64,000 nucleotides of DNA from Gemmatimonas sp. GTDB lineage: Bacteria > Gemmatimonadota > Gemmatimonadetes > Gemmatimonadales > Gemmatimonadaceae. Position numbers and translations under genes: made by a program. This document shows positions 28,746 through 45,916 of this stretch, piece after piece. Position 1 is the stretch's first letter. Every line of letters starts with the position of its first letter. Under the pieces are notes generated by a model that was given only the letters and a program-made list of their open reading frames with translations, was not told where the DNA came from and searched no databases. The stretch is from assembly GCA_031414535.1 (NCBI GenBank), contig JANNVQ010000054.1:118840-182839 (forward strand), in the 5' to 3' direction.

Positions 28746-28827
28746 CTGTTGCGAACTTGTGGGGGTATCACCACGTTCATCCGTCTCCAGCCTGCCACCA
28801 CCCGCCTGCCCCCCGGGACATTCCCCA

Positions 28828-29275: not shown

Positions 29276-29680
29276 GTGGCCTTCTATCTCAAGCTCTACG
29301 CCGCCTGCACGGCCGTGTTCTTCGCCCTCGACATCACCTGGCTGGGATTCGTCGCCAAGGGCTTCTACCAGCGCCAGATGGGGCATTTACTCGCCGACGA
29401 AACCAAGTGGGGCGCCGCCGTCGCGTTCTATTTGATTTACGTGGCGGCCATCGTTGTGCTCTGCGTGATTCCCGCCGTGGAGAAGCAGAGCGTGGCGCGT
29501 GCACTCGCGCTTGGTGCGGTGTTTGGGCTCGCGGCCTACGCGGCCTTTGACCTCACCTCGCTGGCGCTACTCAAAGGATTCCCCGGGGGCGTGGTGCCCA
29601 TCGACCTCGCCTGGGGTGTCGTGCTCACCGCTTCAGTGAGCGCCGCCGGCTATTACGCCGCAGGTTGGTTGCAGCGGTAG
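29276..29680 (+). CDS. DUF2177 family membrane protein
   Basis: LDITWL, AFYLIY, AYAAFDLT, DLAWG. Confidence 0.88.
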   Translation: MAFYLKLYAACTAVFFALDITWLGFVAKGFYQRQMGHLLADETKWGAAVAFYLIYVAAIVVLCVIPAVEKQSVARALALGAVFGLAAYAAFDLTSLALLKGFPGGVVPIDLAWGVVLTASVSAAGYYAAGWLQR

Positions 29681-29831: not shown

Positions 29832-31871
29832 TCAGCTTTCTCGCCGCACCAACGTCAGAATGGAATACAGCGCCACCGCTTCGTCATTCTGATTCATGAC
29901 CTCGACGTCCCACTCCACCACACCCTGCGGAATTCCACCCTCGGGCGTCTCCTTCGCCGTCTTCTGCTTGACGGTAAGGCGCACGTGAATGGAATCGCCG
30001 GGATACACCGGCTTAGTGAAGCGCAGATTCTCGAGCCCGTAGTTCGCAAGCACCGGGCCGAGTGACGGTTCCACGAACAGCCCCGCCGCCGCCGACACAA
30101 TGAAGTACCCGTGCGCCACGCGGCCTTCGAAGATGCCATTCGAGCGCGCCTCTTCGTCGTTCATGTGCGCGTAGAACTTGTCGCCCGAGAGCTCTGCAAA
30201 CTTCACGATATCATCGAGCGTGATGGTGCGCGTCCCCGTCAGCAGCGTGTCGCCGATATGCAGCTGGTCGAAAGTCTTGCGGAATGGATGCACCGTATCG
30301 GTGGTCTCCGCCGCACCCTTGCTCCACTCGCGCGTGATGGCCGCGAGCACGCTCGGGCTTCCTTGGATGGCCGTGCGCTGCATGTAGTGCAGCACGCCAC
30401 GCGCGCCGCCCATTTCCTCACCACCGCCGGCGCGCCCGGGGCCGCCGTGCACGAGGTTCGGCAACGGAGAACCGTGCCCCGTGCTCTCCTTCGCGCTCGA
30501 GCGATCGAGCACCAAGAGGCGTCCGTGATATGGCGCGACGCCGAGCACCACCTTGCGTGCAACGTCGGCGTCGGCGGTCACGAGTGACCCGCAGAGCGAG
30601 CCGCGCCCGCGGCGCGCCAGCTCGATAGCCTCGTCCAAGTTGCGATACGGCATCACCGTATTGACCGGACCGAAGGCCTCAACGTCGTGCGGCTCAGAAC
30701 GCTCCAGCGGATTCGCGAAGTACATCAACTCCGGCTGATAAAACGCGCCCTTCTCGCGATCTGCACCCAGCACCGCAAAATCACCGCCGCCCACAACACG
30801 CTCCGCCGCCGTGCGAATGCGATCAGCCGCGAGACCCACATCGCGCACCTGCGCATGGCTTACCAGCGGACCCATCTTCACGCCTTCCACAGCGGGGTCA
30901 CCCACGACCGTCTTCTCAAGTCGTGAGCGGATCGCCTTGATGACATCTTCTTCCATTCCAGCAGGCACAATCGTGCGGCGCACCGCCGTGCACTTCTGCC
31001 CGGCCTTCACCGTCATCTCCCGCACCACTTCCTTAATGAAGAGATCGAACTCCTCCGTGCCGGGCGCCGCATCCGGCCCGAGGATCGCGCAGTTGAGCGA
31101 ATCTGCTTCCATGTTGAAGCGCACCGCGTGCTCCACCACGGCCTTGGATTCCTTCAGCATGCGGCCCGTCGCTGCCGAGCCCGTGAAGGCCACAGCGTCC
31201 TGCTCGCTCACATGGTCGAGCAGATCACCCGCGCTACCGCAAATCAGCTGCACCGCCCCCGCTGGCAGGATGCCCGAGGCAATCATCTCCTTGAACACGG
31301 CCTCGGTGAGATAGCTCGTCGCCGTGGCCGGCTTCACGATGGCCGGCACACCTGCCAAAAGCGTGGGCGCGAGCTTCTCCATCATGCCCCACACGGGGAA
31401 GTTGAAGGCATTGATATGTACCGCGACGCCTTCAAGCGGTACGCAGATGTGGCGACCTACAAAGGTGCCGCCCTTGGACAGCGGCTCCGTCGGACCCTCT
31501 ACATGGAAGGTCTCGTTCGGAAACTCGCGTCGGCCGCGGCTCGCGTATGCAAAGAAAGTGCCGAAGCCACCGTCAATATCAATCCAGCTGTCAATCTTCG
31601 TAGCGCCCGTGGCCGCGCTCACCGTGTAGAACGCATCCTTGCGCTCCATCAGATACTTCGCCACGGCCTTCAGCATCGCCGCGCGCTGATGGAAGGTCAT
31701 CGCGCGAAGCTTGGGACCGCCCACGCGCCGCGCATACTCAGTCATCGCCTTGAAATCCAAGCCGCCGCTCGATGCCTCAGCGACCGGCTCACCCGTCACG
31801 GCGTGCAGGAGCAGCGCGGACTTCCCCGTTCCCTCGACCCACTGGCCGAGTGCGTAGTTTTTGAGCTTCAT
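29832..31871 (-). CDS. paaZ: Bifunctional oxepin-CoA hydrolase / aldehyde dehydrogenase
   Basis: ALDH part (INAFNFP, EADSLN, GQKCTA, EAFGP, GHGSPLP) plus MaoC part (GDKFYAH, AHGYF, NYGLENLRF). Confidence 0.96.
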   Translation of the reverse strand: MKLKNYALGQWVEGTGKSALLLHAVTGEPVAEASSGGLDFKAMTEYARRVGGPKLRAMTFHQRAAMLKAVAKYLMERKDAFYTVSAATGATKIDSWIDIDGGFGTFFAYASRGRREFPNETFHVEGPTEPLSKGGTFVGRHICVPLEGVAVHINAFNFPVWGMMEKLAPTLLAGVPAIVKPATATSYLTEAVFKEMIASGILPAGAVQLICGSAGDLLDHVSEQDAVAFTGSAATGRMLKESKAVVEHAVRFNMEADSLNCAILGPDAAPGTEEFDLFIKEVVREMTVKAGQKCTAVRRTIVPAGMEEDVIKAIRSRLEKTVVGDPAVEGVKMGPLVSHAQVRDVGLAADRIRTAAERVVGGGDFAVLGADREKGAFYQPELMYFANPLERSEPHDVEAFGPVNTVMPYRNLDEAIELARRGRGSLCGSLVTADADVARKVVLGVAPYHGRLLVLDRSSAKESTGHGSPLPNLVHGGPGRAGGGEEMGGARGVLHYMQRTAIQGSPSVLAAITREWSKGAAETTDTVHPFRKTFDQLHIGDTLLTGTRTITLDDIVKFAELSGDKFYAHMNDEEARSNGIFEGRVAHGYFIVSAAAGLFVEPSLGPVLANYGLENLRFTKPVYPGDSIHVRLTVKQKTAKETPEGGIPQGVVEWDVEVMNQNDEAVALYSILTLVRRES

Positions 31872-31899
31872 CGGAATAATCTCGGTGAGCGCAGAGCGG

Positions 31900-32502
31900 C
31901 TATTTCCGCTCGCGCGTTTCGTTCCAGGTTTTGAGCACATTGGACTGCGTGGGCCGATTCGTCGGTATCGCGCGAAGCGGTTCCACTTCGCGCCAACTGC
32001 CGCGCATCGCCGCGGGCAGCCGTTGATACAGGGCCGTACCCTCGCTCTTCCACGCGAGCATCTCGTCGCTCACGTCCTTCACAACCTTTGCCGGATTGCC
32101 AACCACAACCGAGCGCGGCGGAATCTGCATCTCGGCCGGCACGAAGCAGAGCGCCCCCACGATGCTGCCCGCTCCCACCACGGCATTGTCCATCACTACC
32201 GCGTTCATGCCAATGAGCGCGTTGGCGCCAATGCGCGCACCATGCACCACGGCGCCGTGGCCGATGTGGGCGCCCGCTTCGAGCACCACGACTACGCCAG
32301 GGAACATGTGAATGGTGCAGTTCTCCTGGATGTTGCAACCATCCTCAATCACGATGCCACCCCAGTCACCACGAATGGCCGCACCCGGGCCAACGTACAC
32401 ATCCTTCCCAATGATGACATTGCCGGTCACCGACGCCTTCGGATGCACGAAGGCGCTCTCGTGCACCACAGGAATGAAATCATCGAATGCGTAGATGCTC
32501 AT
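31900..32502 (-). CDS. paaY: Hexapeptide-repeat gamma-carbonic-anhydrase-like protein
   Basis: PVVHESAFVHP, IRGDWG, NIQENCTIH, HIGHGAVVHG; located in the paa operon. Confidence 0.85.
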   Translation of the reverse strand: MSIYAFDDFIPVVHESAFVHPKASVTGNVIIGKDVYVGPGAAIRGDWGGIVIEDGCNIQENCTIHMFPGVVVVLEAGAHIGHGAVVHGARIGANALIGMNAVVMDNAVVGAGSIVGALCFVPAEMQIPPRSVVVGNPAKVVKDVSDEMLAWKSEGTALYQRLPAAMRGSWREVEPLRAIPTNRPTQSNVLKTWNETRERK

Positions 32503-32509
32503 CTCAGCG

Positions 32510-33721
32510 TTACACGCGCTCAAGGATCACAGCGTAGCCCTGCCCCACGCCAATGCACATGGTGCAGAGGGCGTAGCGACCCTTCGTGCGCTGCAGTTGC
32601 CGAGCGGCCGTGAGTGCGAGCCGCGCACCACTCATGCCCAACGGATGCCCAAGCGCAATCGCACCGCCGTTTGGGTTCACTCGCGCGTCGTCATCAGCAA
32701 TGCCCAGTTCGCGCAAGCAGGCCAAGCCCTGTGCGGCAAACGCTTCGTTGAGCTCAATGACATTCATCTGGTCCAGCGTGAGCCCTGCGCGCTTGAGCGC
32801 AAGCCTCGTGGCAGGCACGGGACCCATGCCCATGATGCGCGGCTCCACTCCGGCGGCCGCGCTCGCCACCACGCGGGCAATCGGCTTCAGCTGATGCGAC
32901 TTGAGCGCGGCGTCCGAGGCAATGAGCAAGGCCGCCGCACCATCATTTAAGCCGGAGCTATTGCCGGCGGTCACCGAGCCCTGACCATCGTGGCGGAACG
33001 CCGGCTTCAGCTTGCCGAGCTTCTCCAACGTCGAATCCGGGCGAATGAACTCATCGTGTTGGAACGGCAACGGATCGCCCTTCTTCTGCGGGATGAGCAC
33101 CGGGACAATCTCTTCTGCGAGCCGCAGGTCATTGCGCGCCGCCAGCGCCTTTTGCTGCGAGCGCAGCGCAAACGCATCCTGATCCGCCCGGCTGATGTGA
33201 TAGCGAGCCGCCACATTCTCGGCCGTCTCGCCCATCGAGTCCGTGCCGTGGGCCTGCTTCATCGCGGGATTCACGAAGCGCCAGCCGAGCGCGGTATCAA
33301 ACAGCTGCATATCGCGGCCAAATGGCTGCGCACTCTTGCTGAGCACATAGGGTGCCCGTGTCATGCTCTCCACGCCGCCCGCCACGTAGAGGTCGCCCTC
33401 GCCGCTTTTGATGGCACGAGTGGCATTGGCCACGGCGCTCAATCCAGACGCGCAGAGACGGTTCACCGTCTCGCCTGGTACGGTCTGCGGCACGCCCGCG
33501 AGCAGGAGCGCCATACGCGACACATTGCGATTGTCCTCGCCCGCTTGATTGGCGCAACCGAGGATAACGTCCACGATGGCCGCCGGATCGAGTCCCGGAT
33601 GACGGCGCATCAGTTCTTTGATAGCGTGGGCGCCGAGATCGTCGGGGCGCACGGTGCTGAGCGAACCACCGAGGTTTCCAATCGGTGTGCGAACGCCGTC
33701 TACAATGAAGGCATCAGTCAT
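32510..33721 (-). CDS. paaJ: 3-oxoadipyl-CoA / 3-oxo-5,6-dehydrosuberyl-CoA thiolase
   Basis: GCANQAGEDNRNV, NRLCASG, NEAFA, GHPLG, MCIGVGQG. Confidence 0.92.
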   Translation of the reverse strand: MTDAFIVDGVRTPIGNLGGSLSTVRPDDLGAHAIKELMRRHPGLDPAAIVDVILGCANQAGEDNRNVSRMALLLAGVPQTVPGETVNRLCASGLSAVANATRAIKSGEGDLYVAGGVESMTRAPYVLSKSAQPFGRDMQLFDTALGWRFVNPAMKQAHGTDSMGETAENVAARYHISRADQDAFALRSQQKALAARNDLRLAEEIVPVLIPQKKGDPLPFQHDEFIRPDSTLEKLGKLKPAFRHDGQGSVTAGNSSGLNDGAAALLIASDAALKSHQLKPIARVVASAAAGVEPRIMGMGPVPATRLALKRAGLTLDQMNVIELNEAFAAQGLACLRELGIADDDARVNPNGGAIALGHPLGMSGARLALTAARQLQRTKGRYALCTMCIGVGQGYAVILERV

Positions 33722-34125
33722 CGGTGTGGCTTTTGGGTGCGGTACACGGTGCCGCGGAAATGTCCCACGGTCACCCCGTCCTGGTTGGTTACGGTCACTC
33801 TGGCAAATCCCACTTTGCGGGACGTCGTTTCCTGCTCACCAACGGCCGTGAGCACGTCACCGGGCTTCACGGCGGCCGGATAACTGATGGTGCAGTCGAG
33901 CGCGACGCTAATCTCGCCGCTGGCGTTGGTGCAGAACGCGTGTGCGGTATCGGCGAACGAGAACACGATGCCACCATGCGCCGTTCCGAAGCCATTCGTC
34001 ATCTCCTCGCGCACCGTCATCTGCAGTTCGCAGTAGCCCTCGCGCACAACGAGCACCTTGACGCCCAGCCACTGCGAGAACGCATCCTGCGCGAACATCT
34101 TCGCGATGACTTCGTTGGCGCTCAC
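33718..34125 (-). CDS. paaI: Hotdog-fold thioesterase
   Basis: DAFSQWLG, NGFGTAHGG, ADTA, FRGTVY; GTGA overlap with paaH. Confidence 0.88.
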   Translation of the reverse strand: MSANEVIAKMFAQDAFSQWLGVKVLVVREGYCELQMTVREEMTNGFGTAHGGIVFSFADTAHAFCTNASGEISVALDCTISYPAAVKPGDVLTAVGEQETTSRKVGFARVTVTNQDGVTVGHFRGTVYRTQKPHR

Positions 34126-35318
34126 GGCAGCAACTTCCCACCGCTCTTCGCCACACGGCGCAGCAGCGGACTCGGGCGATAACGATCCTCCCCGTACTCC
34201 TCTTGCAGCGACTCCAGCGTGGCTAACACACCCGCCGCGCCAATGGCGTCGCCCCATTCAAGCAGGCCGCGGGGATAGTTCACGCCCTTAGTCATCGCGG
34301 TTTCGATGTCTGCGGGTGATGCCACGCGCAGTTGCACCGCGTCCACCGCTTCATTGATCAGCATCGCCAACACGCGGTCGCGCACGGCACGCCCGAGCTG
34401 TTCGTCCTCAGTTGGCTTTGGCGCCACGGCGCCATCACGATAGTCGTAGTAGCCGCGCTTGGCCTTCCGCCCCAGCCACGCGGACTCCACCAAGCGCCGC
34501 TGTGTCAGCGCAGGCCGATAGCGTGGGTCAAAGTACATCGCCTCAAACACGGATTTGGTGACAGCATAGTTCACGTCGTTGCCAATCAAGTCCATCAGTT
34601 CGAACGGACCCATCTTAAAGCCGCCCAGCGTGCGCATCGCCCAGTCGATGGTCGGCACATCCGCGATGCCTTCCTCGAGAATCCGCAGCGACTCGCCGTA
34701 GTACGGTCGCGCGATGCGATTCACGATGAAGCCCGGCGTGTCCGACGCCACGACCGGCAGCTTGCCCCAGCGCTCGATGAGCGCGCGGCACTGCGCGAGC
34801 ACGTCCGGATCGGTGGCGAGCGCGGGAATCACTTCCACCAAGGCCATCACGGGCGCGGGGTTGAAGAAATGGATGCCAACCACGCGTTCACTCTTTTCAC
34901 AACCACCGGCGATGGCGGCGATGCTCAAAGAAGATGTATTCGACGCGAGCACCGCGTCGGCCGCCACAACGGACTCGAGCGCGCGAAACAGGCCCTGCTT
35001 TACGCCCAAGTCTTCGACGATGGCTTCAATTACGAGCCCACAACTTGCAAAGGCTTCGAGGTCGCTTGGCGAGACGCCAGCCACGTACGTGATACGCGAG
35101 AGCACGGCGTCGGCCTCAGACTGCGTGAGGCGCGCCTTCTCGACTTCGCGCGCCAAGGCCTTCTCGTGTCCGGCCTTTGCGCTCTTCACCGCTCCCGCAG
35201 AAGCGTCCGCGAGCACCGTCGCGTGCCCACGCATGGCGGCCACCTGCGCAATGCCGGCTCCCATCGTCCCCGCTCCCACCACACCGATGCGCGTCTGGGC
35301 GCCGAGTACGCGCGCCAT
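34122..35318 (-). CDS. paaH: 3-hydroxyacyl-CoA dehydrogenase
   Basis: GAGTMGAGIA, EAIVE, SNTSS, HFFNPAP, PGFIVNR, MGPFEL. Confidence 0.9.
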   Translation of the reverse strand: MARVLGAQTRIGVVGAGTMGAGIAQVAAMRGHATVLADASAGAVKSAKAGHEKALAREVEKARLTQSEADAVLSRITYVAGVSPSDLEAFASCGLVIEAIVEDLGVKQGLFRALESVVAADAVLASNTSSLSIAAIAGGCEKSERVVGIHFFNPAPVMALVEVIPALATDPDVLAQCRALIERWGKLPVVASDTPGFIVNRIARPYYGESLRILEEGIADVPTIDWAMRTLGGFKMGPFELMDLIGNDVNYAVTKSVFEAMYFDPRYRPALTQRRLVESAWLGRKAKRGYYDYRDGAVAPKPTEDEQLGRAVRDRVLAMLINEAVDAVQLRVASPADIETAMTKGVNYPRGLLEWGDAIGAAGVLATLESLQEEYGEDRYRPSPLLRRVAKSGGKLLP

Positions 35319-35320
35319 CG

Positions 35321-36106
35321 CTAGCGTCCCTTGTAGGTGGGTGCGCGCTTCTCAAGAAAGGCGCGTACGCCTTCTTCATAGTCGGCGGTGCTACCCGCCT
35401 CCTGCATACAGCGCGCTTCCATCTCAAGTTGCTCGTCGAGTGAGTTGGCCCAAGACGCGTTCATCGCACGCTTGGTCAGACCGAAGCCACGCGTAGCCTG
35501 CGTGGCCAGCGAGGCCGCAAGCGCCCGCGTAGTGCTCATCAAGTCCGCAGCCGGTGCGACGTCCCAAATGAGCCCCCAGTCCCTGGCCTGCTTTGCGCTC
35601 ATCTTCCCGGCGAGAAAAAACATCCCCGTCGCGCGTTGCGAGCCCACCAAGCGGGGCACGAAGAAGGTCCCGCTAGTGTCTGGGATGAGCCCGAGCTTCG
35701 CAAAGCTCTCTACGAAGCTTGCCTCCTCCGCCGCAATCGTGAGGTCGCAGGCAAAGGCCAAGTTCGCCCCGGCACCGGCGGCAATTCCGTTCACCGCACA
35801 AATCACCGGCTTCTCGAGCGAACGAATCGCACGGATGATTGGATTGTACGAGGCACGGACCACCTCGGAGATGTCAGGCATCGGTCCATCACCCACGGGG
35901 AGCACTTCCTGGAGATCTTGCCCCGCGCAGAAGCCCCGGCCTGCCCCCGTGAGCAGGACAGCCCGAATGTCGGAACCCGCCGCCGCGCGCGCCAACTCCA
36001 CTTGCAGCGCCTGCGCCATCGCGCGGTCAAAACTGTTGAGAACCTCGGGACGGTTCAGTGTTAGTTCGAGGACCCCGTCCTTGAGCTCGCTCAGGATGCT
36101 TGGCAT
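35321..36106 (-). CDS. paaG: 1,2-epoxyphenylacetyl-CoA isomerase (crotonase family)
   Basis: FCAGQDL, YNPII, AAGAGANLA, GLIPD. Confidence 0.9.
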   Translation of the reverse strand: MPSILSELKDGVLELTLNRPEVLNSFDRAMAQALQVELARAAAGSDIRAVLLTGAGRGFCAGQDLQEVLPVGDGPMPDISEVVRASYNPIIRAIRSLEKPVICAVNGIAAGAGANLAFACDLTIAAEEASFVESFAKLGLIPDTSGTFFVPRLVGSQRATGMFFLAGKMSAKQARDWGLIWDVAPAADLMSTTRALAASLATQATRGFGLTKRAMNASWANSLDEQLEMEARCMQEAGSTADYEEGVRAFLEKRAPTYKGR

Positions 36107-36127
36107 GGGCCGAAATCTACTGCTTGT

Positions 36128-36265
36128 TCACCACGGAGACACGGAGGCTCAGAGACGACTGAAGAAGGGCCTCCGAGGGTCGCACAATGAGGCGACGGGA
36201 CGCCACGGCCGGCAGGGGCTCTCCCTCGGAATTTCTGTCTCCGAGCCTCTGTGTCTCCGTGGTGA
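36128..36265. repeat. Palindromic CACGGAGG-type element, copy B
   Basis: TCACCACGGAGACACGGAGGCTCAGAGAC...GTCTCCGAGCCTCTGTGTCTCCGTGGTGA (27/29 complementary). Confidence 0.88.
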
Positions 36266-36297
36266 TGGCCGGTGTCTTATTGCTAGATTTCGACCCG

Positions 36298-38400
36298 ATG
36301 CCTCCCCAGACGAAAACCCCCGCCGCACCCGCCATCGATTGGCGCAAGGTCGCGTACAACCTACTCTGCTCCCGTGCGCTCGACGACGCCGAGGAACAGA
36401 CCAATCGGAACCGCGCCACCGTCCCCAAGGACCACGTGGTGCTCTACCAGTTCTCAGCGCGCGGCCACGACTTGGCGCAGGTCATCCTCGGCCAGTTGCT
36501 GACCGGCAAGCGCGATGCCGCGGGCGCCTACTATCGCAGCCGGCCGCTCCTCTTGTCTCTTGGCCTCTCACTCGAGGATGCCTTTGGCTCACCGCTCGGC
36601 CGCGCCGGCGGCTTTTCTGACGGCCGCGACATCGGCGTTGTCTGCAACTTCCCGCGCGAGGAAGGCTGCATCGTCCTGCCGATGGCCGGTGATGTGGGCT
36701 CCCAATACACCCCGACGGCGGGCTGGGCGCAGGGCATCCTCTACAACAGCGAGATTCTCAAGGACCATCGCTATCACAAGTCCATCGGCGTCGCGCTCGG
36801 CGGTGATGCGTCGGTGGCGACGAGCGGATTCTGGTCGGCCCTCACAATGGCCACCACGCTCAAGTTGCCGATGCTGTTCTATATCGAAGACAACAACCTC
36901 GGCATTTCCGTCTCGGGCGATTTCCAGACACCCGGCGGCGATATCGCAGCCAATCTCTCGTCGTTTAAGAATCTGCTGATTCGCAACGGCGATGGCACGA
37001 ACCCCGCGGATAGCGCTGAGAAGTTGACCGAAGCTGTTGCGCATGTGCGCTCTGGCAAGGGCCCTGCCCTCGTGCGTCTCACCGTGCCACGTCTGTCCTC
37101 GCACTCGGGGCCGGACAACCAGAAAGGCTATCGCTCGGACGCGGAGATCGCCGCCGACCAGCAGCGCGACCCGTTGCCTCGGCTCCGAAGCTTTCTTGTG
37201 CCCTCGCAGTTGAGCGCGGCCGAGTGGAGCCAACTCGAAGCAGACGTCTCACGCGATGTGGAACGCGCACTCTCAGCCGCGCGCACTCGCCCAAAGCCCG
37301 ACCCGGCCAAGATTGCGATGTACATCCACGCCGACGATACCGACGGCGCTCCGGAAGCCTTCGGGGGCCTGCGCCGCAGCGAGCGCTTTGCGCAGAAGCG
37401 CAGCGAAAGCGCCGCCGAGAACGGTGAGATGCTTCGCTTTGCCGAGGCCGTGCGCCGCACGCTGCGCCATGAACTGCAGGTCAATCCCAAGGTCGTGGTC
37501 TTCGGCGAGGATGTGGGCAAGAAGGGTGGCGTACACCTCGTCACTGAAGGCCTGCAAAAATCCTTCGGCAGCGATCGCGTGTTCGACACCTCGCTCAGCG
37601 AAGAAGGCATCATTGGCCGCGCCGCCGGACTCGCCATCGCGGGCCTCATGCCGGTGGCGGAGATTCAGTTTCGAAAGTACGCTGACCCCGCCACCGAGCA
37701 ACTCAACAACGCCGGCACCCTGCGTTGGCGCACCGCGAATCGTTTTGCCTCGCCGATGGTGGTGCGTATGCCCGGGGGCTACGGCAAGGACGTGGGCGAT
37801 CCTTGGCATTCACTGAGCGACGAGGTGCGCTTTGCGCACGCCTATGGTTGGCAGCTCGCCATTCCATCCAACGCCGCCGACGCAGTGGGCCTGCTGCGTA
37901 CGGCCATGCGTAGCCCCAACCCCACGGTGTTCTTCGAGCATCGTTCACTGCTGATGACCGGCGACGGCAGCGCGCGCTATCCTGGCGACGACTACGTGAT
38001 TCCCTTTGGCCGCGCCCGCGTGGTGCAGCCGGGCAAGTCACTCACCATGGTGAGCTGGGGCGCCATGGTGCATCGCTGCGCCGAGGCTGCCGCTCAACTC
38101 GGCGACGCTGTAGAGTTGCTGGACCTTCGCACGATTGCGCCTTGGGACCGCGACGCGGTGCTTGCGAGCGTGCGAAAGACCGGCCGCTGCTTGATTGTGC
38201 ACGAGGACAATCTCACCGCGGGCTTTGGTGCTGAAGTCGCGGCGACCATTACGCAGGACGCCTTCTGGTACTTGGATGCGCCGGTGGAGCGTCTCGCCCC
38301 AAAGGACATCCCAATGCCGTATCACCCGGATCTGTTGGCCGCAGTGCTCCCAGATGTGCCGGAGATACTGGCGTGTGCGGAACGAGTGCTGCGTACCTAG
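36298..38400 (+). CDS. Fused 2-oxoacid dehydrogenase E1 alpha/beta (ThDP-dependent)
   Basis: GDAS...EDNN ThDP motif, RLSSHS, GEDVG, RVFDTSLSEEGIIG, EIQF, FFEH, DLRTI, VHED. Confidence 0.9.
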   Translation: MPPQTKTPAAPAIDWRKVAYNLLCSRALDDAEEQTNRNRATVPKDHVVLYQFSARGHDLAQVILGQLLTGKRDAAGAYYRSRPLLLSLGLSLEDAFGSPLGRAGGFSDGRDIGVVCNFPREEGCIVLPMAGDVGSQYTPTAGWAQGILYNSEILKDHRYHKSIGVALGGDASVATSGFWSALTMATTLKLPMLFYIEDNNLGISVSGDFQTPGGDIAANLSSFKNLLIRNGDGTNPADSAEKLTEAVAHVRSGKGPALVRLTVPRLSSHSGPDNQKGYRSDAEIAADQQRDPLPRLRSFLVPSQLSAAEWSQLEADVSRDVERALSAARTRPKPDPAKIAMYIHADDTDGAPEAFGGLRRSERFAQKRSESAAENGEMLRFAEAVRRTLRHELQVNPKVVVFGEDVGKKGGVHLVTEGLQKSFGSDRVFDTSLSEEGIIGRAAGLAIAGLMPVAEIQFRKYADPATEQLNNAGTLRWRTANRFASPMVVRMPGGYGKDVGDPWHSLSDEVRFAHAYGWQLAIPSNAADAVGLLRTAMRSPNPTVFFEHRSLLMTGDGSARYPGDDYVIPFGRARVVQPGKSLTMVSWGAMVHRCAEAAAQLGDAVELLDLRTIAPWDRDAVLASVRKTGRCLIVHEDNLTAGFGAEVAATITQDAFWYLDAPVERLAPKDIPMPYHPDLLAAVLPDVPEILACAERVLRT

Positions 38401-38452
38401 GACGGATGACGGATGACGGAAGCTTGTTGCATCCGTCATCCGTCATCCGTCC
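38400..38452. repeat. Palindromic GACGGAT-type element, copy 3
   Basis: GGACGGATGACGGATGACGGA-N11-TCCGTCATCCGTCATCCGTCC, perfect 21-bp arms. Confidence 0.92.
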
Positions 38453-38463
38453 CCCATCAAGCA

Positions 38464-38492
38464 TTGCCCAACTTCGTCCCAGCACGTATTTT
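38464..38492 (+). promoter_or_regulatory. Sigma70-type promoter candidate for the leader-MATE transcript
   Basis: TTGCCC-N17-TATTTT. Confidence 0.55.
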
Positions 38493-38524
38493 CTTAACCG
38501 TTCCCCCAACCTGAGCCCGCTAAG

Positions 38525-38611
38525 ATGATCCTGCTCGCCCCAACCATGCGCCCGGTACCGACCGCCGTCGGTGTCGTAGTGCGTGCGCGCGAAGCAGGGC
38601 ACCTCGGGTAG
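38525..38611 (+). CDS. Putative 28-aa leader peptide MILLAPTMRPVPTAVGVVVRAREAGHLG
   Basis: Small ATG..TAG ORF between the promoter and a terminator; its 3' end contains the antiterminator strand. Confidence 0.55.
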   Translation: MILLAPTMRPVPTAVGVVVRAREAGHLG

Positions 38612-38642
38612 CAGCGACACTTCCGTCGCGCCTCGCGGATCC

Positions 38643-38685
38643 ACGCCCCTCCTGCTTCGTACAGCGGATGGGGCGTTTTCATTTT
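38643..38685 (+). terminator. Attenuator terminator in the MATE 5' leader
   Basis: ACGCCCC-TCC-T-GCT-loop-AGC-GGA-T-GGGGCGT followed by TTTCATTTT, about 20 nt before the MATE ATG. Confidence 0.7.
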
Positions 38686-38704
38686 GACTCCGTGAGTGTT
38701 CCCT

Positions 38705-40126
38705 ATGCATACCAGTCCTAACTCCACGCCCACTACCGAGCCCACGAGCGTCTGGCGCGATATCCGCGACGCCATTCGTGGCTCGGAGCACGACTACACG
38801 CAGGGCCCAATCGGTCGCGCAATCTTCTTGCTCGCCGTTCCCATGGTGCTCGAGATGTCCATGGAGAGCATCTTCGCCGTCGTTGATGCCTTCTTCGTCG
38901 GACGGCTTGGGCCTGCCGCGGTGGCCACGATCGGTCTCACCGAATCACTGATGGTCGTCATCTATACTGTGGCGATGGGGCTCAGCATCGGTGCCACCGC
39001 CACCGTCGCACGCCGCATCGGCGAGAAGGATCCCGATGGTGCCGCGCGCGCTACCGTTCAGGCGCTCATGCTCGGCCTTCTTCTCTCCACGGTGCTCGGC
39101 GTGTTCGGTGCGATCTATGCACCGGAGTTGCTCGCCCTCATGGGCGCCGATGCCGAGGTGCTGGCGGTGGGCACAGGCTTCGCTCGCGTCTCGCTCGCGT
39201 GCAACGGTGGCGTCTTCCTGCTCTTCCTCATCAATGCCGCGTTCCGAGGCGCCGGCGACGCGGCCGTGGCCATGCGCGTGCTGGTGTTGGGCAATGCCAT
39301 CAACATCGTGCTCGACCCGCTTCTCATCTTTGGCGTGGGATTCTTTCCTGAGATGGGGCTCGTGGGTGCGGCGTGGGCAACTGTCATCGGCCGCGTGACC
39401 GGTTTCCTCTGGGCGCTTTGGCACTTGAGCGCTGGTGAGGGCAACCTGCACGTGCACAAACATCACGTGGTCGTGGAGCCTAAGGAGATGCTGAGCATCG
39501 CCAAGCTCTCGGGCTGGGGCACCTTCCAAGTCGCACTGAGCTCAATGAGTTGGATTGCACTTGTGCGTCTGACCTCGACCTTTGGCGCAGCGACATTGGC
39601 TGGGTACACCATCTCCATCCGCATTCTGCTCTTCGCGCTCATGCCGGCCTATGGCGTGGGAGCCGCGGCCGCGACGATGGTGGGCCAAGCACTCGGCGCC
39701 CAGAACCCCGACCGCGCCGAGCAATCGGTGTGGGTGGCGGCGCGGATGAACATGCTGCTCCTCGGCCTCACCGGCGTGCTCTTCTGGATTTTCGCGCCCA
39801 CGATGGTCAGCTGGTTCAGCGATACGGCGGAAGTGCGCATCGTCGCGAGCTATGCGCTGCGTACCATGTCACTGGGCTTCCCACTCTATGCGCTCGGCAT
39901 GGTGCTGGAGCAGTCCTTCAACGGCGCGGGAGACACGCGCACGCCAAGCTGGATCAACTTCTTCGTGTTCTGGGTCTTCCAGATTCCACTGGCCTGGTGG
40001 ATGTCGCAGCGCACGGACTTGGGCTTCCGCGGCGTGTTCATTGCGGTGCCGATGGCGTACTCGGCGCTGGCGATTGTGAGTGCGATTTTGTTCCGGCGGG
40101 GGAGCTGGAAGCAAAGGCGTATCTAG
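38705..40126 (+). CDS. MATE family efflux transporter
   Basis: LAVPMVLE, VDAFFVGRLG, FRGAGD, NIVLDPLLIFG, GAAWAT, GQALGA, GAGDT. Confidence 0.95.
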   Translation: MHTSPNSTPTTEPTSVWRDIRDAIRGSEHDYTQGPIGRAIFLLAVPMVLEMSMESIFAVVDAFFVGRLGPAAVATIGLTESLMVVIYTVAMGLSIGATATVARRIGEKDPDGAARATVQALMLGLLLSTVLGVFGAIYAPELLALMGADAEVLAVGTGFARVSLACNGGVFLLFLINAAFRGAGDAAVAMRVLVLGNAINIVLDPLLIFGVGFFPEMGLVGAAWATVIGRVTGFLWALWHLSAGEGNLHVHKHHVVVEPKEMLSIAKLSGWGTFQVALSSMSWIALVRLTSTFGAATLAGYTISIRILLFALMPAYGVGAAAATMVGQALGAQNPDRAEQSVWVAARMNMLLLGLTGVLFWIFAPTMVSWFSDTAEVRIVASYALRTMSLGFPLYALGMVLEQSFNGAGDTRTPSWINFFVFWVFQIPLAWWMSQRTDLGFRGVFIAVPMAYSALAIVSAILFRRGSWKQRRI

Positions 40127-40193
40127 GACGGATGACGGATGACGGCTACACAGGCGGTCTGTGCGCATCCGTCATGCGTCATCCGTCCTAGAT
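40121..40193. repeat. Palindromic GACGGAT-type element, copy 4, containing both convergent TAG stops
   Basis: ATCTAGGACGGATGACGGATGACGG...CCGTCATGCGTCATCCGTCCTAGAT. Confidence 0.92.
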
Positions 40194-40685
40194 CGCCTTA
40201 AACTCGTCAAACGGCTGCTTGCAGTCCTTACACACGTGAATCGCTTTGCAAGCCGTTGATCCAAACTCGCTCTTGAGCGAGGTGTTCCGCGATCCACACC
40301 ACGGGCACTGCACAGGGGGCTTGGCACGCACCAGCGTGACCAAGCCTCCGTCGTCTGCGCGGCCTGGCGGTGCAATTCCGTACTTGCGAAGCTTTTCGCG
40401 CGCCGACTCAGGAATCCAATCGGTGGTCCAGGCCGGCGAGAGCACGGTCTTCACCTCCACCGATGTCGCGCCAGCGGCCTCAAGCGCGGAAATCACGTCG
40501 CGCTCAATCTCGAACATCGCGGGGCAGCCGCTATACGTGGGCGTGATGGTCACTTCCACGCCGCCATCCTCGCGCTGATGCGCATCGCGCACGATGCCGA
40601 GTTCCACAACGGAAATCACTGGCACCTCGGGATCCGGGACGGTCCCAAGGATTGCGAAGAGTTGATCGCGGCTGAACGTCGTCAT
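40188..40685 (-). CDS. paaD: Phenylacetyl-CoA epoxidase-associated subunit D
   Basis: VPDPEVPVISVVELGIVR, TPTYSGCPAM, PAWTTDW, CPWC, FGSTACK, PFDEFK. Confidence 0.93.
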   Translation of the reverse strand: MTTFSRDQLFAILGTVPDPEVPVISVVELGIVRDAHQREDGGVEVTITPTYSGCPAMFEIERDVISALEAAGATSVEVKTVLSPAWTTDWIPESAREKLRKYGIAPPGRADDGGLVTLVRAKPPVQCPWCGSRNTSLKSEFGSTACKAIHVCKDCKQPFDEFKAI

Positions 40686-40722
40686 GTGAGATGAACGCGA
40701 CAGTGTGGCGCCGCGTTCGCGC

Positions 40723-41565
40723 TTACCAGGTCGCGCCAGGGTGGGCCCGCGCCACGCTCTGCATCGTGGCCAACAGATGCCCGATGTGTTCCGTATGCCG
40801 ACCGCGGCGTCCGCCCTGCTGCATGGCCCCGTCAGCCGGACGCACAAGCGTCGCGCGCGCGAAGACGTCGTTGACCAGCGAATCCCAACGCGACTTGATA
40901 CCCGCCACATCAACGGTGATGCCCGCGGCCTGAGCAGCCACGTCAATTTCGTCGGTCACGAACATCTCGCCTGTGTACGGCCACAAGCGATCCACCGACG
41001 CCTGCACGCGCGCGTGACTCTCCGCGGTACCATCGCCGAGGCGCACCACCCATTCACTGGAATGCCGGAGGTGGTACTTGTCTTCCTTGAGCGCCTTGGC
41101 GGCAATCGCCGCGAGCTGGGCGTGCCCGCACCGCGTGAACTCGTCAAGCAGCAGCACGCTGTGAGCATCGAAAAAGAACTGCCGGACCATCGAATGGCCG
41201 AAGTCTCCCCGCGGAAGCTCGACGAGCAGGCAATTGCGGAACAGCGTGCCATCACGGAAGTACGCGAGCGCGTTCTCATCACGCCCCTTCCCCTCGGTCT
41301 CGCCCGCGAGCTTGAGCAACTGCGCCGCTTGGCCAATCAAGTCCAACGCGATGTTCGCGGTGGCAATGTCCTCTTCGAGAATCGGGCCGTGGCCCGTCCA
41401 CTCCGACATGCGGTGCCCGAGAATCAGGCGGTCGTCGCCGAGGCGCAGAAAGTATTCCACCAGTGGCGCAGCGAACGCCGCGCGGCGTGCTCCGGCCACA
41501 TTGCCGACGCCCGCCTTCGCCTCGCCCGCGGCGATGCCGCCTGCTTCCCCTTCGAGCTCAGCCAT
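40723..41565 (-). CDS. paaC: Phenylacetyl-CoA epoxidase subunit C
   Basis: LGDDRLILGHRMSEW, GPILEEDIA, ALDLIGQA, KEDKYH, terminal HPGATW. Confidence 0.95.
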   Translation of the reverse strand: MAELEGEAGGIAAGEAKAGVGNVAGARRAAFAAPLVEYFLRLGDDRLILGHRMSEWTGHGPILEEDIATANIALDLIGQAAQLLKLAGETEGKGRDENALAYFRDGTLFRNCLLVELPRGDFGHSMVRQFFFDAHSVLLLDEFTRCGHAQLAAIAAKALKEDKYHLRHSSEWVVRLGDGTAESHARVQASVDRLWPYTGEMFVTDEIDVAAQAAGITVDVAGIKSRWDSLVNDVFARATLVRPADGAMQQGGRRGRHTEHIGHLLATMQSVARAHPGATW

Positions 41566-41855
41566 CAGAAAACGCGCATGCCCTGCGGCACCTTATAGAA
41601 CTGCGGGTGACGGTAGGCCTTGTCGTTGCCAGGCTCAAAGAACGGCCCCGCGTCCGACGGGGCGGATGCCGTAATCGCACTCGCCGGCACCACCCAGAGA
41701 TTCACGGCTTCGCCGCGGCGCGTGTAGACATCGCGCGCATTCTGCAGGGCGTGCTCGGCGTCCGTTGCGTGCAAAGAGCCAGCGTGTTCAAAGGGTTCAC
41801 CCTGGTTGCCCTGGGTGAACACCTCCCACAGCGGCCATGATTGTTCCGTTCCCAT
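41565..41855 (-). CDS. paaB: Phenylacetyl-CoA epoxidase subunit B
   Basis: WPLWEVF, HAGSLHA, ARDVYTRR, KAYRHP. Confidence 0.95.
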   Translation of the reverse strand: MGTEQSWPLWEVFTQGNQGEPFEHAGSLHATDAEHALQNARDVYTRRGEAVNLWVVPASAITASAPSDAGPFFEPGNDKAYRHPQFYKVPQGMRVF

Positions 41856-41890
41856 AGTCAACTCTCGATCAAGAAAAAACTCCAAGGACT

Positions 41891-42014
41891 TCACCACAAA
41901 GGCACGAAGGGTTTGGACCCACCTCAGGCATCCCCGCGCTGTTCAACATCAATACCCGACTGGAACAGCGAGACAGAACATGAGCCTACTGGGAGCCCTT
42001 CGTGCCTTCGTGGT
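41891..42014. repeat. Palindromic CACGAAGG-variant element, copy C
   Basis: ACCACAAAGGCACGAAGGG...CCCTTCGTGCCTTCGTGGT (18/19) between paaA and paaB. Confidence 0.8.
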
Positions 42015-42028
42015 CCGTGCAGTTTCAG

Positions 42029-42991
42029 CTACGCTGCTGACGACGTCTTGTCGCGCTTCGCCGCGTGCGCCAATGCCGCCTCGCGCACCCAGGCCCCTTC
42101 GTCGTGCGCCTTGTTGCGCGCTTCGAGTCGCTCGACGTTGCACGGACCATTGCCCTTCACCACTTCCCAGAACTCGGACCAGTCAATCTCTCCAAACTCC
42201 CAGTTCTTGGTCTCAGCATCGAACTTAAGATCCGGATCCGGCAGCGTGATGCCAATCGCCTGCGCCTGCGGCACCGTAAGATTCACAAACCGCTGACGCA
42301 GCTCGTCGTTGGTCTTGCGCTTCACACGCCACTTAAGCAATTCCGCCGAATTCGGCGAGTCCTTGTCGCTCGGGCCAAACATCGCCAGCGATGGCCACCA
42401 GAAGCGGTTCACCGCATCCTGCAACATCTCCTTCTGCGCTGGCGTGCCCTTGGCCAGCGTCGCGCAGATCTCGAAACCCTGACGCTTGTGGAAGTTTTCT
42501 TCCTTGCAGATGCGCACCATCGCGCGCGCGTACGGGCCATATGAGGCCTTCGCCAGTACGGTTTGATTCACGATCGCCGCGCCGTCTACAAACCAGCCAA
42601 TCACACCCATATCGGCCCAGCTGAGCGTCGGATAATTGAAGATGCTCGAGTATTTGGCCGTACCATCGAGCAGCTGATTGAACAGGTCGTGGCGATCCAC
42701 GCCCAAGGTCTCGGTGCCGCAGTAGATGTACAGACCGTGGCCGGCCTCGTCCTGCACCTTGGCAATGAGCGACATCTTGCGGCGCAGCGAAGGCGCGCGC
42801 GTGATCCAATTGCCCTCAGGCAGCATCCCCACAATTTCGGAATGCGCGTGCTGGGCCATCATGCGCGTCAGCTGCTTGCGGTAGCGCTCGGGCATCCAGT
42901 CCTTGGGCTCGATGCTCTCACCGGCGGCGATGCGGGCCTCAAAGGCGGCCAGGAGCGCCGGATCCTCCTGCGGGATGGTCGTCTGGGTCAT
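42029..42991 (-). CDS. paaA: Phenylacetyl-CoA epoxidase catalytic di-iron subunit A
   Basis: [46 protein letters not shown]. Confidence 0.97.
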
Positions 42992-43018
42992 GGCCAGAAA
43001 TTTACTATGTTTCCCGGT

Positions 43019-43816
43019 ATGACGCCCACCGAATCCAGCCCTAATGCACGTTCTGACGCCCCCACCGATGGACGCGTCCAGCTATCCATCGCAGACGGAA
43101 TCGGAACTGTCGAGTTTTTCCATCCAAAGGGGAACTCCTTACCCTCGGCTTTGCTGCGCAGGCTCGCCGACGGCATCACGACGTTGGGGCAAGACCCTGC
43201 CGCTCGCGTAATCGTCTTGCGCTCCGCGGGAGAAGGAGCCTTCTGCGCCGGCGCGTCCTTCGATGAGTTCACCGCCCTCGCCGATCCCGCCGAGGGCAAG
43301 GAGTTCTTCCTCGGCTTCTCCAAGGTGATTCTCGCGATGATCCGCGCGCCGAAGTTCGTCATCACGCGCGTGCACGGACGCGCCGCGGGTGGCGCACTCG
43401 GCGTCATCGCCGCCAGCGACTACTCGTTTGCGGTTGAGTCCGCGCAGGCCAAGCTCTCGGAACTGGCAGTCGGCATCGGACCATTCGTGGTGGGAGTGGT
43501 CCTCGAGAGAAAACTCGGCCAGGCGGCGTTCCAAAACTTGGCGGTTCACGCTGATTGGCACGATGCCGTGTGGTGCGAGCGCCACGGTCTCTACTCGCAG
43601 GTCAGCGATAACCTACACGCCCTTGATGCCATCGTACACTCGCACGCCGTGCGGCTTGCCGCAGCCAATCCCGAGGCCATGCACGAGATGAAGCGCGTCT
43701 TCTGGCGCAACACCGAGGACTGGGAGGCGCAGATGGACTCGCGCGCGGCGATGAGCGGACGGATGGTGCTGAGCGACTTCACCCGCGAGGCGCTGGCAAA
43801 GTTCCGCGCGCGTTGA
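43019..43816 (+). CDS. Enoyl-CoA hydratase/isomerase family protein (candidate PaaF substitute)
   Basis: FCAGASF, AAGGALG (no first catalytic Glu), [10 protein letters not shown]; divergent from paaA. Confidence 0.85.
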
Positions 43817-43850
43817 TTGTCGCTTGACTCGCGCAATCTCGCGCGAGTCC

Positions 43851-45026
43851 TCACGCGTAGACCGCAGTCACCGCTTCTTCGAAGGTCTCGCGGTGCCCGC
43901 CTTTGATGATACGAGCCGTCGTCTCGAAGCCAGCCTGCTCGAGCCTGCGCGCCGCAATCAGCATGGTCTGCACTTCGAAGCGCTGCTTCTCAATCACGGC
44001 GAGGTATTCCTCCACCGCCGTGAGATAGCCCATCATCCCGCCGAGTTCGCAGGGCGCGAAGACTTTCTGCGCGTCGCGCAGCACTTCCACACCCTGGGCA
44101 TCGGGCATCACGAGGTTTTCGCTGCCGCAGATCACCTTGAGGCGGGCGTTAGCCGTACAAGCGGAGATTGACGCGGCATCCAACGTGCCGCCCGCCGCAT
44201 TCACCACGAGCGCGTCCATTGGCAGCGAGAGGAACTCACGCTTGCGCTCCGGCCCCCAAGTGCGGATGCCCATCGCTTCCAACTCCGCGCGGCGTTCCTC
44301 GCGCGACTCACAGGCGAGAATCGTCACGCCGCGGTGCCTCTGCAACTCGCGAATGATGTGCATCCCAATGTTGCCGCAGCCAATCAGCGCAACGGTGGAC
44401 TGCGCGAGCGGGATGCCGTAGGCGCGCAACATACCGTGCAAGAGCTGGAAGTTGCCTTCGCCCGTGGGCACCGAAGTATCCGCCACCACGCTGCCCGCAA
44501 AGCGCGCGTGCAGGAACTCCAGCGAGCCGGTCTTCCCGTCAGACATCCGACCATGGCCGAGGTCCTGGCCCGTCGTGATGTGAATGCCCGCCTCGGACTC
44601 CACATCGTTCAAACAATTCGCCGCCCACTCGAGCATCTCGGCATCGCGCGCGTTGCCCACCCGCCCGTCCGCGGTGGGTGCGAGTACGCACTTGCCGCCC
44701 ACCACCCGCGTGAGATCACGCAGCGCGAGCGGACCACCGACCTTGATCACGCGCGACCAATGCACCTTCTCTTCCATACCCATCGCTAAGGCAATCGCCT
44801 CACGATCCGTCGTGAACCCGGCGGACTCGGTACGCTCGAGCGGGGCAATGCGAAAACCGCCGAGCGAGAGCTTGCCAGAACCCGGCGGCGCATGAGTCGC
44901 GATAGAGAGCACCCAGGGCAGCCTGGGGTGCTGGTACCGATAAACCCAAACGTTCGGATTTCGCGTATCAGACAGCTCTGGAACGAGCTGCGCGGAGTCG
45001 GCTGGAGAAATTGTTTTTCTTTGCAC
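43851..45026 (-). CDS. Divergent Glu/Leu/Phe/Val dehydrogenase-like protein
   Basis: LGGFRI, LAMGMEEK, GGKCVL, TGQDLG, TSVPTGEG, IGCGNIG, ICGSEN appear in the order of the ELFV-DH motifs. Confidence 0.7.
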   Translation of the reverse strand: MQRKTISPADSAQLVPELSDTRNPNVWVYRYQHPRLPWVLSIATHAPPGSGKLSLGGFRIAPLERTESAGFTTDREAIALAMGMEEKVHWSRVIKVGGPLALRDLTRVVGGKCVLAPTADGRVGNARDAEMLEWAANCLNDVESEAGIHITTGQDLGHGRMSDGKTGSLEFLHARFAGSVVADTSVPTGEGNFQLLHGMLRAYGIPLAQSTVALIGCGNIGMHIIRELQRHRGVTILACESREERRAELEAMGIRTWGPERKREFLSLPMDALVVNAAGGTLDAASISACTANARLKVICGSENLVMPDAQGVEVLRDAQKVFAPCELGGMMGYLTAVEEYLAVIEKQRFEVQTMLIAARRLEQAGFETTARIIKGGHRETFEEAVTAVYA

Positions 45027-45446: not shown

Positions 45447-45916
45447 CCGTGCAGATTCCCGCCCAGAGCGTACGACGCCGCAACGTCATTCTGCTCGCAC
45501 TGAGCTATCCTATCGTCAGCTGGGTTCTTTGGATGACGTTGCGCGAGCACGCCTTCTTTGCGCTCGCGCACCTTGCCGCCACGGCGCTCATCTTCTGGCT
45601 CGTTGCTGTAAAGCGTGTGGCGAAGATTGGTAGGCTCATCGGCGATGACCTCGATAGCCGCCTCGATGAACGGCAACTCGCGCTTCGTAATGCCGCGTAT
45701 CTTGACGCCTATCGCATCGCCGGCGGCATCATCCTGCTAGGCGTCATCTGGATCGCACTCGGACTCGACCTAGGAATTTGGTGGGTGCCCTCGACCTACG
45801 ACGAGTGGAACCTCATCTTCTGGGGTCTCTTCATCTACCTCATATCGCTGCCGAGTGCCTTCCTCGTGTGGCGCGAACCGGATCGCATTGATGACTTGGA
45901 GCTTCAGGATGCTTGA
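45443..45916 (+). CDS. Four-TM membrane protein with DER motif (DUF2178-like)
   Basis: LDERQLALRNAA; ATGA overlap with the XRE gene. Confidence 0.7.
   Translation: MTVQIPAQSVRRRNVILLALSYPIVSWVLWMTLREHAFFALAHLAATALIFWLVAVKRVAKIGRLIGDDLDSRLDERQLALRNAAYLDAYRIAGGIILLGVIWIALGLDLGIWWVPSTYDEWNLIFWGLFIYLISLPSAFLVWREPDRIDDLELQDA

Follow-up and report, generated by a model that had tools for sequence, protein, structure and literature searches.

A fused E1 protein linked to a PaaK-less paa cluster in Gemmatimonas as the predicted first component of a phenylpyruvate dehydrogenase complex

We analysed a 64,000-nucleotide stretch of Gemmatimonas sp. (GCA_031414535.1, contig JANNVQ010000054.1, positions 118,840 to 182,839; this whole stretch is called the window below) that carries a cluster of paa genes for the degradation of phenylacetyl-CoA. 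The window lies at the end of its contig (C54), in a draft assembly of 3.70 Mb with 58 contigs and an estimated completeness of 98.41%. In the middle of the cluster, a single gene encodes a fused E1 alpha/beta 2-oxoacid dehydrogenase, hereafter E1-A. Judging from gene content and neighbourhood, E1-A is probably the thiamine diphosphate (ThDP)-dependent E1 of a phenylpyruvate dehydrogenase complex that makes phenylacetyl-CoA directly for the adjoining paa genes, in a genome where phenylacetate-CoA ligase (PaaK) was not found. An initial annotation of this DNA had read the locus as leading from phenylalanine through phenylpyruvate to phenylacetyl-CoA, and this interpretation is supported by comparative genomics.

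The predicted route would have four steps. A divergent dehydrogenase resembling the ELFV superfamily, encoded at the edge of the cluster (43851-45026), would oxidatively deaminate L-phenylalanine to phenylpyruvate; in relatives without this gene, aminotransferases may form phenylpyruvate. E1-A would then decarboxylate phenylpyruvate and reductively phenylacetylate a lipoyl-E2. The E2 would pass the acyl group to CoA, yielding phenylacetyl-CoA, and E3 would reoxidise the lipoamide with NAD+. Finally, PaaABCD, PaaG, PaaZ, PaaJ and PaaH would degrade phenylacetyl-CoA together with a crotonase-family protein. If this route is true, the bacterium bypasses free phenylacetate altogether and needs no ATP for an activation step.

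The distribution of E1-A was examined in 201 genomes sampled evenly across the phylum, with the E1-A clade defined as proteins at least 60% identical to the window protein. The paaA gene was present in 37 of the 201 genomes. An E1 at 60 to 100% identity to E1-A was found in exactly these genomes (37/37) and in none of the 164 without paaA, a result that we read as a pattern and not as a statistic. One of the orthologues, in genome G125, was split into separate alpha and beta genes. The 164 paaA-negative genomes include one unpublished genome (G157), on which no positive claim rests. Their best E1 match was a single homologue at 50% identity (G098); all the others were at 41% or below and corresponded to a second type of fused E1 described below. 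The G098 protein was considered as a counterexample, but its gene lies among asparagine-synthase and glycosyltransferase genes, and it was therefore treated as an outgroup. E1-A and paaA also varied together within genera of mixed state, both being present in one of three genomes of genus g4 and in three of 16 genomes of genus g26. A PaaK-like match above 78 bits was missing in 28 of the 37 paaA-positive genomes. These comparisons suggest that E1-A is a regular companion of the paa genes and the sole visible entry route where PaaK is absent.

Gene order was compared in a scan of species-representative genomes, which gave 80 loci with the E1-A clade, 77 from Gemmatimonadota and three from Balneolales. 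At least 2.5 kb of sequence upstream of E1 was available for 58 of the 77 Gemmatimonadota loci. The paaG gene was present in 57 of these 58, divergent from E1 as in the window in 42 cases and co-directional in 15; the synteny between E1 and paa genes, whose lack would have spoken against the initial annotation, is conserved. In two closed genomes, G067 and G103, paaA lies 0.9 and 1.6 Mb away from E1, respectively. Despite this distance, the lower-pathway genes still adjoin E1: paaG-H-I-J-Y-Z in G067, and paaH-I-J-Y-Z in G103, in which paaG was unresolved by the gene caller. Some relatives keep an E2 gene in the same neighbourhood. The order in G031 is paaK-paaZ-paaY-paaJ, followed by a divergent paaG..paaI-E1-E2, and that in G125 is E2..E1beta-E1alpha-paaI-paaH-paaG, followed by paaJ..paaZ..paaK. 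An alpha/beta-hydrolase gene was observed between E1beta and E2 in G125, and an AMP-binding enzyme other than PaaK near E1 in G190 (loci L016 5635-7224 and L018 5374-6939).

An independent lineage was provided by the three Balneolales loci (Gracilimonas and Balneolaceae), whose E1 is 58 to 59% identical to E1-A. Within 9 kb of E1, paa genes were not found in these loci. However, paaA is present in all three genomes, about 1 Mb away from the E1-A-clade gene in one of them (G201), and none of the three has a PaaK match above 21 bits. Directly upstream of E1, a HisC-family aminotransferase gene was found in 3/3 loci, with a gap of 20 bp in one of them (L101). By analogy, this pair of aminotransferase and E1 may follow the same logic as the genes of the window, with another first enzyme.

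The genome was scanned for the usual entry enzyme and for other enzymes of the pathway. The initial annotation had reported paaK and paaX as missing from the window, and this holds genome-wide: the best TIGR02155 match for PaaK reached 30.1 bits against a cut-off of 646.3, and the TIGR02277 model for the PaaX repressor gave no match. PaaK was likewise not found in three sampled congeneric genomes, one of which is 100% complete in 7 contigs, so that a gap in the assembly is unlikely to account for the missing gene. The PaaE reductase also gave no genome-wide match (TIGR02160), despite the presence of paaABCD. Among 14 control genomes, the PaaA model scored above its cut-off in three and the PaaE model in none, so PaaE-less clusters are not unusual. 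A genome-wide family scan gave no match to the alpha subunit of indolepyruvate:ferredoxin oxidoreductase (IOR), and a genome-wide search for homogentisate dioxygenase returned nothing convincing (51.5 bits, cut-off 510.75). On this evidence, the paa genes appear to be the sole recognisable ring-cleavage route for phenylalanine in this organism, with the usual entry enzyme missing.

Gene identities in the window were assigned by scanning its proteins with Pfam and NCBIfam family models and comparing the scores with the NCBIfam cut-offs. The cluster is composed of the following features.

29832-31940, minus strand: paaZ, bifunctional oxepin-CoA hydrolase/semialdehyde dehydrogenase (TIGR02278, 1009.6 bits, cut-off 562.8; Aldedh and MaoC domains)
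31900-32523, minus strand: paaY-like hexapeptide-repeat protein (TIGR02287, 227.6 bits, below the cut-off of 319.6; Hexapep domain)
32510-33721, minus strand: paaJ, 3-oxoadipyl-CoA thiolase (NF006551, 661.3 bits, cut-off 605)
33718-34257, minus strand: paaI, hotdog thioesterase (TIGR02286, 113.1 bits, below the cut-off of 118.9; match on residues 62-173)
34122-35318, minus strand: paaH, 3-hydroxyacyl-CoA dehydrogenase (subfamily model NF006124, 525.1 bits, cut-off 508; 3HCDH_N and 3HCDH domains)
35321-36106, minus strand: paaG, epoxyphenylacetyl-CoA isomerase of the crotonase family (TIGR02280, 341.2 bits, just below the cut-off of 345.15)
36107-36297, no strand: intergenic region between the divergent paaG and E1 genes, containing a long inverted repeat
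36187-38400 (open reading frame), plus strand: E1-A, fused E1 alpha/beta 2-oxoacid dehydrogenase (Pfam E1_dh, 84.4 bits; Transket_pyr, 111.2 bits; Transketolase_C, 115.3 bits; single chain)
38696-40126, plus strand: MATE-family transporter (MatE, 201 bits)
40188-40946, minus strand: paaD (TIGR02159, 198.3 bits, cut-off 108.15; match on residues 103-252; the listed open reading frame overlaps paaC)
40723-41565, minus strand: paaC (TIGR02158, 290.9 bits, cut-off 133.35)
41565-41897, minus strand: paaB (TIGR02157, 113 bits, cut-off 85.45)
42029-42991, minus strand: paaA, catalytic subunit of phenylacetyl-CoA epoxidase (TIGR02156, 505.8 bits, cut-off 280)
43007-43816, plus strand: divergent crotonase-family protein of 269 amino acids (enoyl-CoA hydratase models match below threshold only, best 97.3 bits)
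43851-45026, minus strand: divergent ELFV-superfamily amino-acid dehydrogenase, P0002 (predicted fold, hhalign and profile search)

The family models agree with the initial annotation on paaABCD, paaG, paaH, paaI, paaJ, paaY and paaZ, with paaG, paaI and paaY scoring below their cut-offs and all four epoxidase subunits (PaaA, PaaB, PaaC and PaaD) above theirs. The true start of paaI is probably further downstream than that of the listed open reading frame, which overlaps paaH. The fused E1 in the middle of the cluster was also borne out, with its three domains in one chain. The genes listed in the initial annotation are thus real, but the list had missed the crotonase-family gene. This gene sits between paaA and the ELFV-like gene, and a homologue of it adjoins paaA in 36 of the 80 related loci. 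No protein reached the cut-off of a PaaF model, and the crotonase-family protein is the sole candidate for this step; it may stand in for PaaF, the 2,3-dehydroadipyl-CoA hydratase. A 139-amino-acid open reading frame on the opposite strand (42988-43407, minus strand) overlaps the crotonase-family gene. None of the family models matches it and its translation is of low complexity; it was set aside as most likely spurious. The MATE transporter does not belong to the conserved part of the cluster, since a homologue was found in only 12 of the 80 loci. The inverted repeat between paaG and E1 is 28 nt long, with arms at 36130-36157 and 36238-36265, and was considered as a shared paa operator. However, 18 copies of its 14-mer core are scattered over 12 contigs of the 3.7-Mb genome, and the repeat was therefore regarded as a dispersed element resembling repetitive extragenic palindromes and not as specific to paa. 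A short-range scan of the same intergenic region for inverted repeats gave one weak palindrome and nothing more.

Next, the E1-A protein itself was considered. Its orthologues are about 700 amino acids long and align from Met38, so that the real start of the gene is probably at 36298 (M38) and the coding region 36298-38400. The beta half matches E1-beta chains in the PDB at E values of about 1e-74 to 1e-62 (best, 4.7e-74 to 7.4e-74), and the alpha half matches PDB chains at 3e-23 or weaker. Four motifs were conserved in 10/10 aligned members of the clade: GG(D/E)(A/G)-x26-EDN, an S(S/G)HS..D loop, SEEGIIG and DPWHS. We take these to be the ThDP/Mg-binding motif and the catalytic His and Glu regions. 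From its sequence, E1-A looks catalytically intact. The genome encodes a second fused E1 alpha/beta protein, 39% identical to E1-A, on contig C10 (36090-38123; locus L019, 9079-11187). It has no adjoining E2 gene; its neighbours are a TonB-dependent receptor gene on one side and unrelated genes on the other. Paralogues of this type are present in nearly all sampled genomes of the class. The E1-A orthologue of genome G126 (C32:181490-183544) has one in-frame TAG, so it could be a pseudogene or reflect a sequencing error; this genome also has PaaK.

A 2-oxoacid dehydrogenase E1 would need E2 and E3 partners. The initial annotation had supposed that these could be borrowed from elsewhere, and three E2s and one E3 are indeed encoded in the genome, all of them away from the locus. 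On contig C11, an E2 of the pyruvate dehydrogenase type forms an operon with E1-beta, E3 and lipoate-attachment genes, the E1-alpha being a match at 26% identity just upstream. On contig C19, an unclassified E2 gene follows separate E1-alpha and E1-beta genes (an E1ab-E2 operon). The third E2 is SucB on contig C55. In addition, a dedicated lipoyl-E2, defined by at least 64% identity to the E2 of G031, was found in 13 of the 201 genomes, all of which have paaA: all 12 genomes of the sister family f2, and G052. It adjoins E1 in seven of these 13 genomes and lies near paaA in genus g54. Apart from G052, it was not found in the 25 paaA-positive genomes sampled from family f1, to which the genome studied here belongs. 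Among the 77 Gemmatimonadota loci of the species-representative scan, this E2 follows E1 in 13, at a distance of 18 to 160 bp in 12 of them and of 638 bp in one. Since the dedicated E1 and the dedicated E2 both co-occur with paaA, two components of a 2-oxoacid dehydrogenase are paa-specific in this phylum. In the genome studied here, E1-A would depend on an E2 from another locus, with the C19 E2, the C11 pyruvate dehydrogenase E2 and SucB on C55 as candidates.

The upstream enzyme was assigned from sequence profiles and a structure model. The initial annotation had recognised an ELFV-like gene at the edge of the cluster; profile search, hhalign and fold search agree with it, although the protein has no match to the Pfam ELFV families (PF00208 and PF02812) at E ≤ 0.001. 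A genome scan with PF00208 returned two other genes and not this one. The family is small, with 78 representatives at E ≤ 0.001 among 1.84 billion. In a 22-member alignment, G56, G57, R59, K87, G111, K112, T152, G153, D155 and N276 were invariant. The family profile reaches leucine, phenylalanine and tryptophan dehydrogenases at E values of 1e-13 to 1e-9, over the NAD domain only. An AlphaFold model (mean predicted local confidence pLDDT, 94.7; predicted template-modelling score pTM, 0.89) has a two-domain fold, for which the top Foldseek matches were the Rhodococcus phenylalanine dehydrogenase structures 1bw9/1c1d (E value, 1e-19; TM-score, 0.69/0.76; about 373 aligned columns). The top 30 or so matches were all phenylalanine, leucine, tryptophan or glutamate dehydrogenases, with about 370 aligned columns. 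The weakest matches of the representative search were also aligned (alignment A3), but at 17 to 30% identity they were too heterogeneous, and the Leu/Phe/Val dehydrogenase of the genome itself was used for hhalign instead. This comparison gave a probability of 97.6% and paired GGFR with GGTR, MEEK87 with MTYK, GGK112 with GGGK, GQD155 with AED and GCGNIG with GLGNVG. These are presumably the carboxylate-binding Lys, the catalytic Lys (GGGK), the catalytic Asp and the Rossmann glycines. Taken from sequence and model, the protein is a divergent relative of phenylalanine and leucine dehydrogenases that looks catalytically intact. Homologues were found in 10 of the 201 genomes, all of them with paaA, and in nine of the ten within about 4 kb of it. 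This exclusive paa neighbourhood makes phenylalanine the most likely substrate.

Other genes near the cluster were recorded as well. The initial annotation had connected the route with many secreted peptidases nearby; two peptidase genes were confirmed by family matches, which bears this out only in part.

21623-24022, minus strand: Met-zincin peptidase (DUF4953/DUF5117)
45855-47243, plus strand: S41 peptidase with a PDZ domain

The product of a minus-strand gene just upstream of the cluster (25976-28237) combines a Ser/Thr protein kinase with a long TPR array in a single fusion, and a Ser/Thr kinase gene is also close to the E1 locus in the relatives G067 and G125. Between the kinase gene and paaZ lie a 194-amino-acid open reading frame without a Pfam or NCBIfam match (28244-28828, minus strand) and a gene for a DUF2177 membrane protein (29276-29680, plus strand). 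A search for RNA sequencing runs that cover 34000-42000 of the window listed none.

Three other explanations of E1-A were weighed. One is that E1-A is a generic E1 of the branched-chain or pyruvate type whose place next to paa genes was inherited, phenylacetyl-CoA being made from phenylacetate by an unrecognised ligase or CoA-transferase. The only NCBIfam models named for E1-A are indeed pyruvate dehydrogenase E1 models, all under their cut-offs, the nearest PDB chains are E1 subunits of branched-chain 2-oxoacid dehydrogenase and pyruvate dehydrogenase, no cognate E2 is encoded at the locus, and weak AMP-binding matches occur in the genome. However, the genome already has two classical E1ab-E2 operons and the second fused E1, which is near-universal in the class. 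The clade is also absent from 164/164 genomes without paaA, congeners of paaA-positive ones included, it co-occurs with paaA even where the two are unlinked, as in G201, and relatives place E1 co-directional with paaG, paaH, paaI and E2. We therefore consider this explanation quite improbable.

Aldehyde release is a possible side reaction of E1 components. E1-A might accordingly act independently of any E2, decarboxylating phenylpyruvate or using it as a carboligase, and the product, phenylacetaldehyde or an acyloin, would be oxidised and activated by other enzymes; members of this bacterial family have no E2 gene next to E1-A. A route through the free aldehyde would, however, also depend on a phenylacetate-CoA ligase, and none was found. 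Moreover, the transketolase-like beta part of E1-A is fully kept, with its C-terminal domain, and the lipoyl-E2 is retained by 13 relatives, in seven of them adjoining E1, which makes this explanation very unlikely. It is somewhat easier to imagine, though still unlikely, that E1-A is a broad dehydrogenase of arylpyruvates or other 2-oxoacids derived from amino acids, with the hydroxylated or indole products as dead ends cleared by the PaaI and PaaY thioesterases. The PaaI model carries the name hydroxyphenylacetyl-CoA thioesterase, and the change of upstream enzyme, from the ELFV-like protein here to a HisC-type aminotransferase in Balneolales, would fit an enzyme of loose specificity. Against such breadth, the strict co-occurrence with paaA points to phenylacetyl-CoA as the product that matters.

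Several points weigh against E1-A as a phenylpyruvate dehydrogenase component. Its substrate is read entirely from genomic context, and its acyl acceptor in this genome is putative: the dedicated E2 has no orthologue there, the best match being the C19 E2 at 33 to 41% identity. The association of the clade with paaK-less clusters, proposed in the initial annotation, stands for 28 of the 37 paaA-positive genomes, but the clade also occurs in the nine that carry a PaaK-like gene (above 500 bits). Because these nine genomes hold both, E1-A is not simply a replacement of PaaK. A promiscuous acyl-CoA ligase or a CoA-transferase could possibly activate phenylacetate; weak AMP-binding matches lie on contigs C5 and C1, and the genome is a 58-contig draft. 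The ELFV-like gene was found in only 10 of the 37 paaA-positive genomes, so it is dispensable for the route, and its product could act on another amino acid. Lastly, related genomes are not independent samples, and 37/37 overstates the statistical weight of the co-occurrence.

The prediction for E1-A can be extended to a broader proposal, which we put forward tentatively and with less than even confidence. In Gemmatimonadota and Balneolales, the paa pathway may be fed mainly by a dedicated, lipoamide-dependent phenylpyruvate dehydrogenase, at no cost of ATP. In the family studied here, its own E2 may have been lost, so that E1 plugs into the E2 core of another complex and forms a hybrid. Upstream of it, there may be an unrecognised family of phenylalanine dehydrogenases that is invisible to the Pfam ELFV models.

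The canonical entry through PaaK also delivers phenylacetyl-CoA to PaaABC(D)E, but it does so from free phenylacetate and ATP. In Phaeobacter inhibens, the enzyme that converts phenylpyruvate to phenylacetyl-CoA is IOR. This is a family other than E1, and the IOR alpha subunit was not found in the genome studied here. The relevant part of a review describes the conversion of phenylalanine through phenylpyruvate to phenylacetyl-CoA in P. inhibens without phenylacetate as an intermediate (PMC7497051). PglB/PglC, a pyruvate dehydrogenase-like complex of the L-phenylglycine operon of Streptomyces pristinaespiralis, has been suggested to convert phenylpyruvate to phenylacetyl-CoA (PMC7089894). As far as that account goes, PglB/PglC and E1-A are alike by description only: both are E1 alpha/beta-type proteins for which this reaction has been suggested or predicted, but PglB/PglC has separate alpha and beta genes, is biosynthetic (for a pristinamycin precursor) and does not feed paa genes. 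In ripostatin biosynthesis, phenylpyruvate is decarboxylated by a pyruvate dehydrogenase-like complex and the product stays bound as a phenylacetyl thioester (Fu et al. 2017, as cited in PMC5490192); this complex belongs to secondary metabolism and loads a polyketide synthase carrier protein instead of CoA.

The three domains, the ThDP motif and the catalytic regions of E1-A are shared with the alpha2beta2 E1 of branched-chain 2-oxoacid and pyruvate dehydrogenases (PDB 1um9, 1dtw, 1qs0 and 1w85). E1-A differs from these in its fused alpha and beta parts (about 700 amino acids), in belonging to a separate clade tied to paa, and in having no adjoining E2 in its family. According to the structure model and the alignments, the ELFV-like protein shares the two-domain fold and the GG-R, K, GGK and D motifs with the Rhodococcus L-phenylalanine dehydrogenase (1bw9, 1c1d) and with leucine and tryptophan dehydrogenases. 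It differs from them by an identity of only 16 to 18% and by about 13 extra residues that separate the two lysines. In the open-access literature and bioRxiv, no report was found of a 2-oxoacid dehydrogenase that feeds a catabolic paa pathway. Skipping phenylacetate has been reported before (Phaeobacter), and pyruvate dehydrogenase-like enzymes have been described as acting on phenylpyruvate (ripostatin and, as a suggestion, PglB/PglC). What this locus adds is an E1 that stands alone, its cognate E2 apparently lost, the phylum-wide count of co-occurrence, the Balneolales pair of aminotransferase and E1, and a divergent dehydrogenase family.

In current descriptions, PaaK opens the paa pathway by using phenylacetate and ATP, and annotation therefore scores PaaK-less clusters as incomplete. 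The variant predicted here is coherent, testable and missed by annotation pipelines. If the ELFV-like family acts on phenylalanine, biocatalysis would gain a new source of amino-acid dehydrogenases. The lone E1 of this genome, set against the cognate E2 of its sister lineages, offers a natural system for E2 sharing between 2-oxoacid dehydrogenase complexes. If true, a 2-oxoacid dehydrogenase dedicated to paa would explain the catabolism of peptide phenylalanine in these bacteria, with one step fewer, no ATP spent and one extra NADH.

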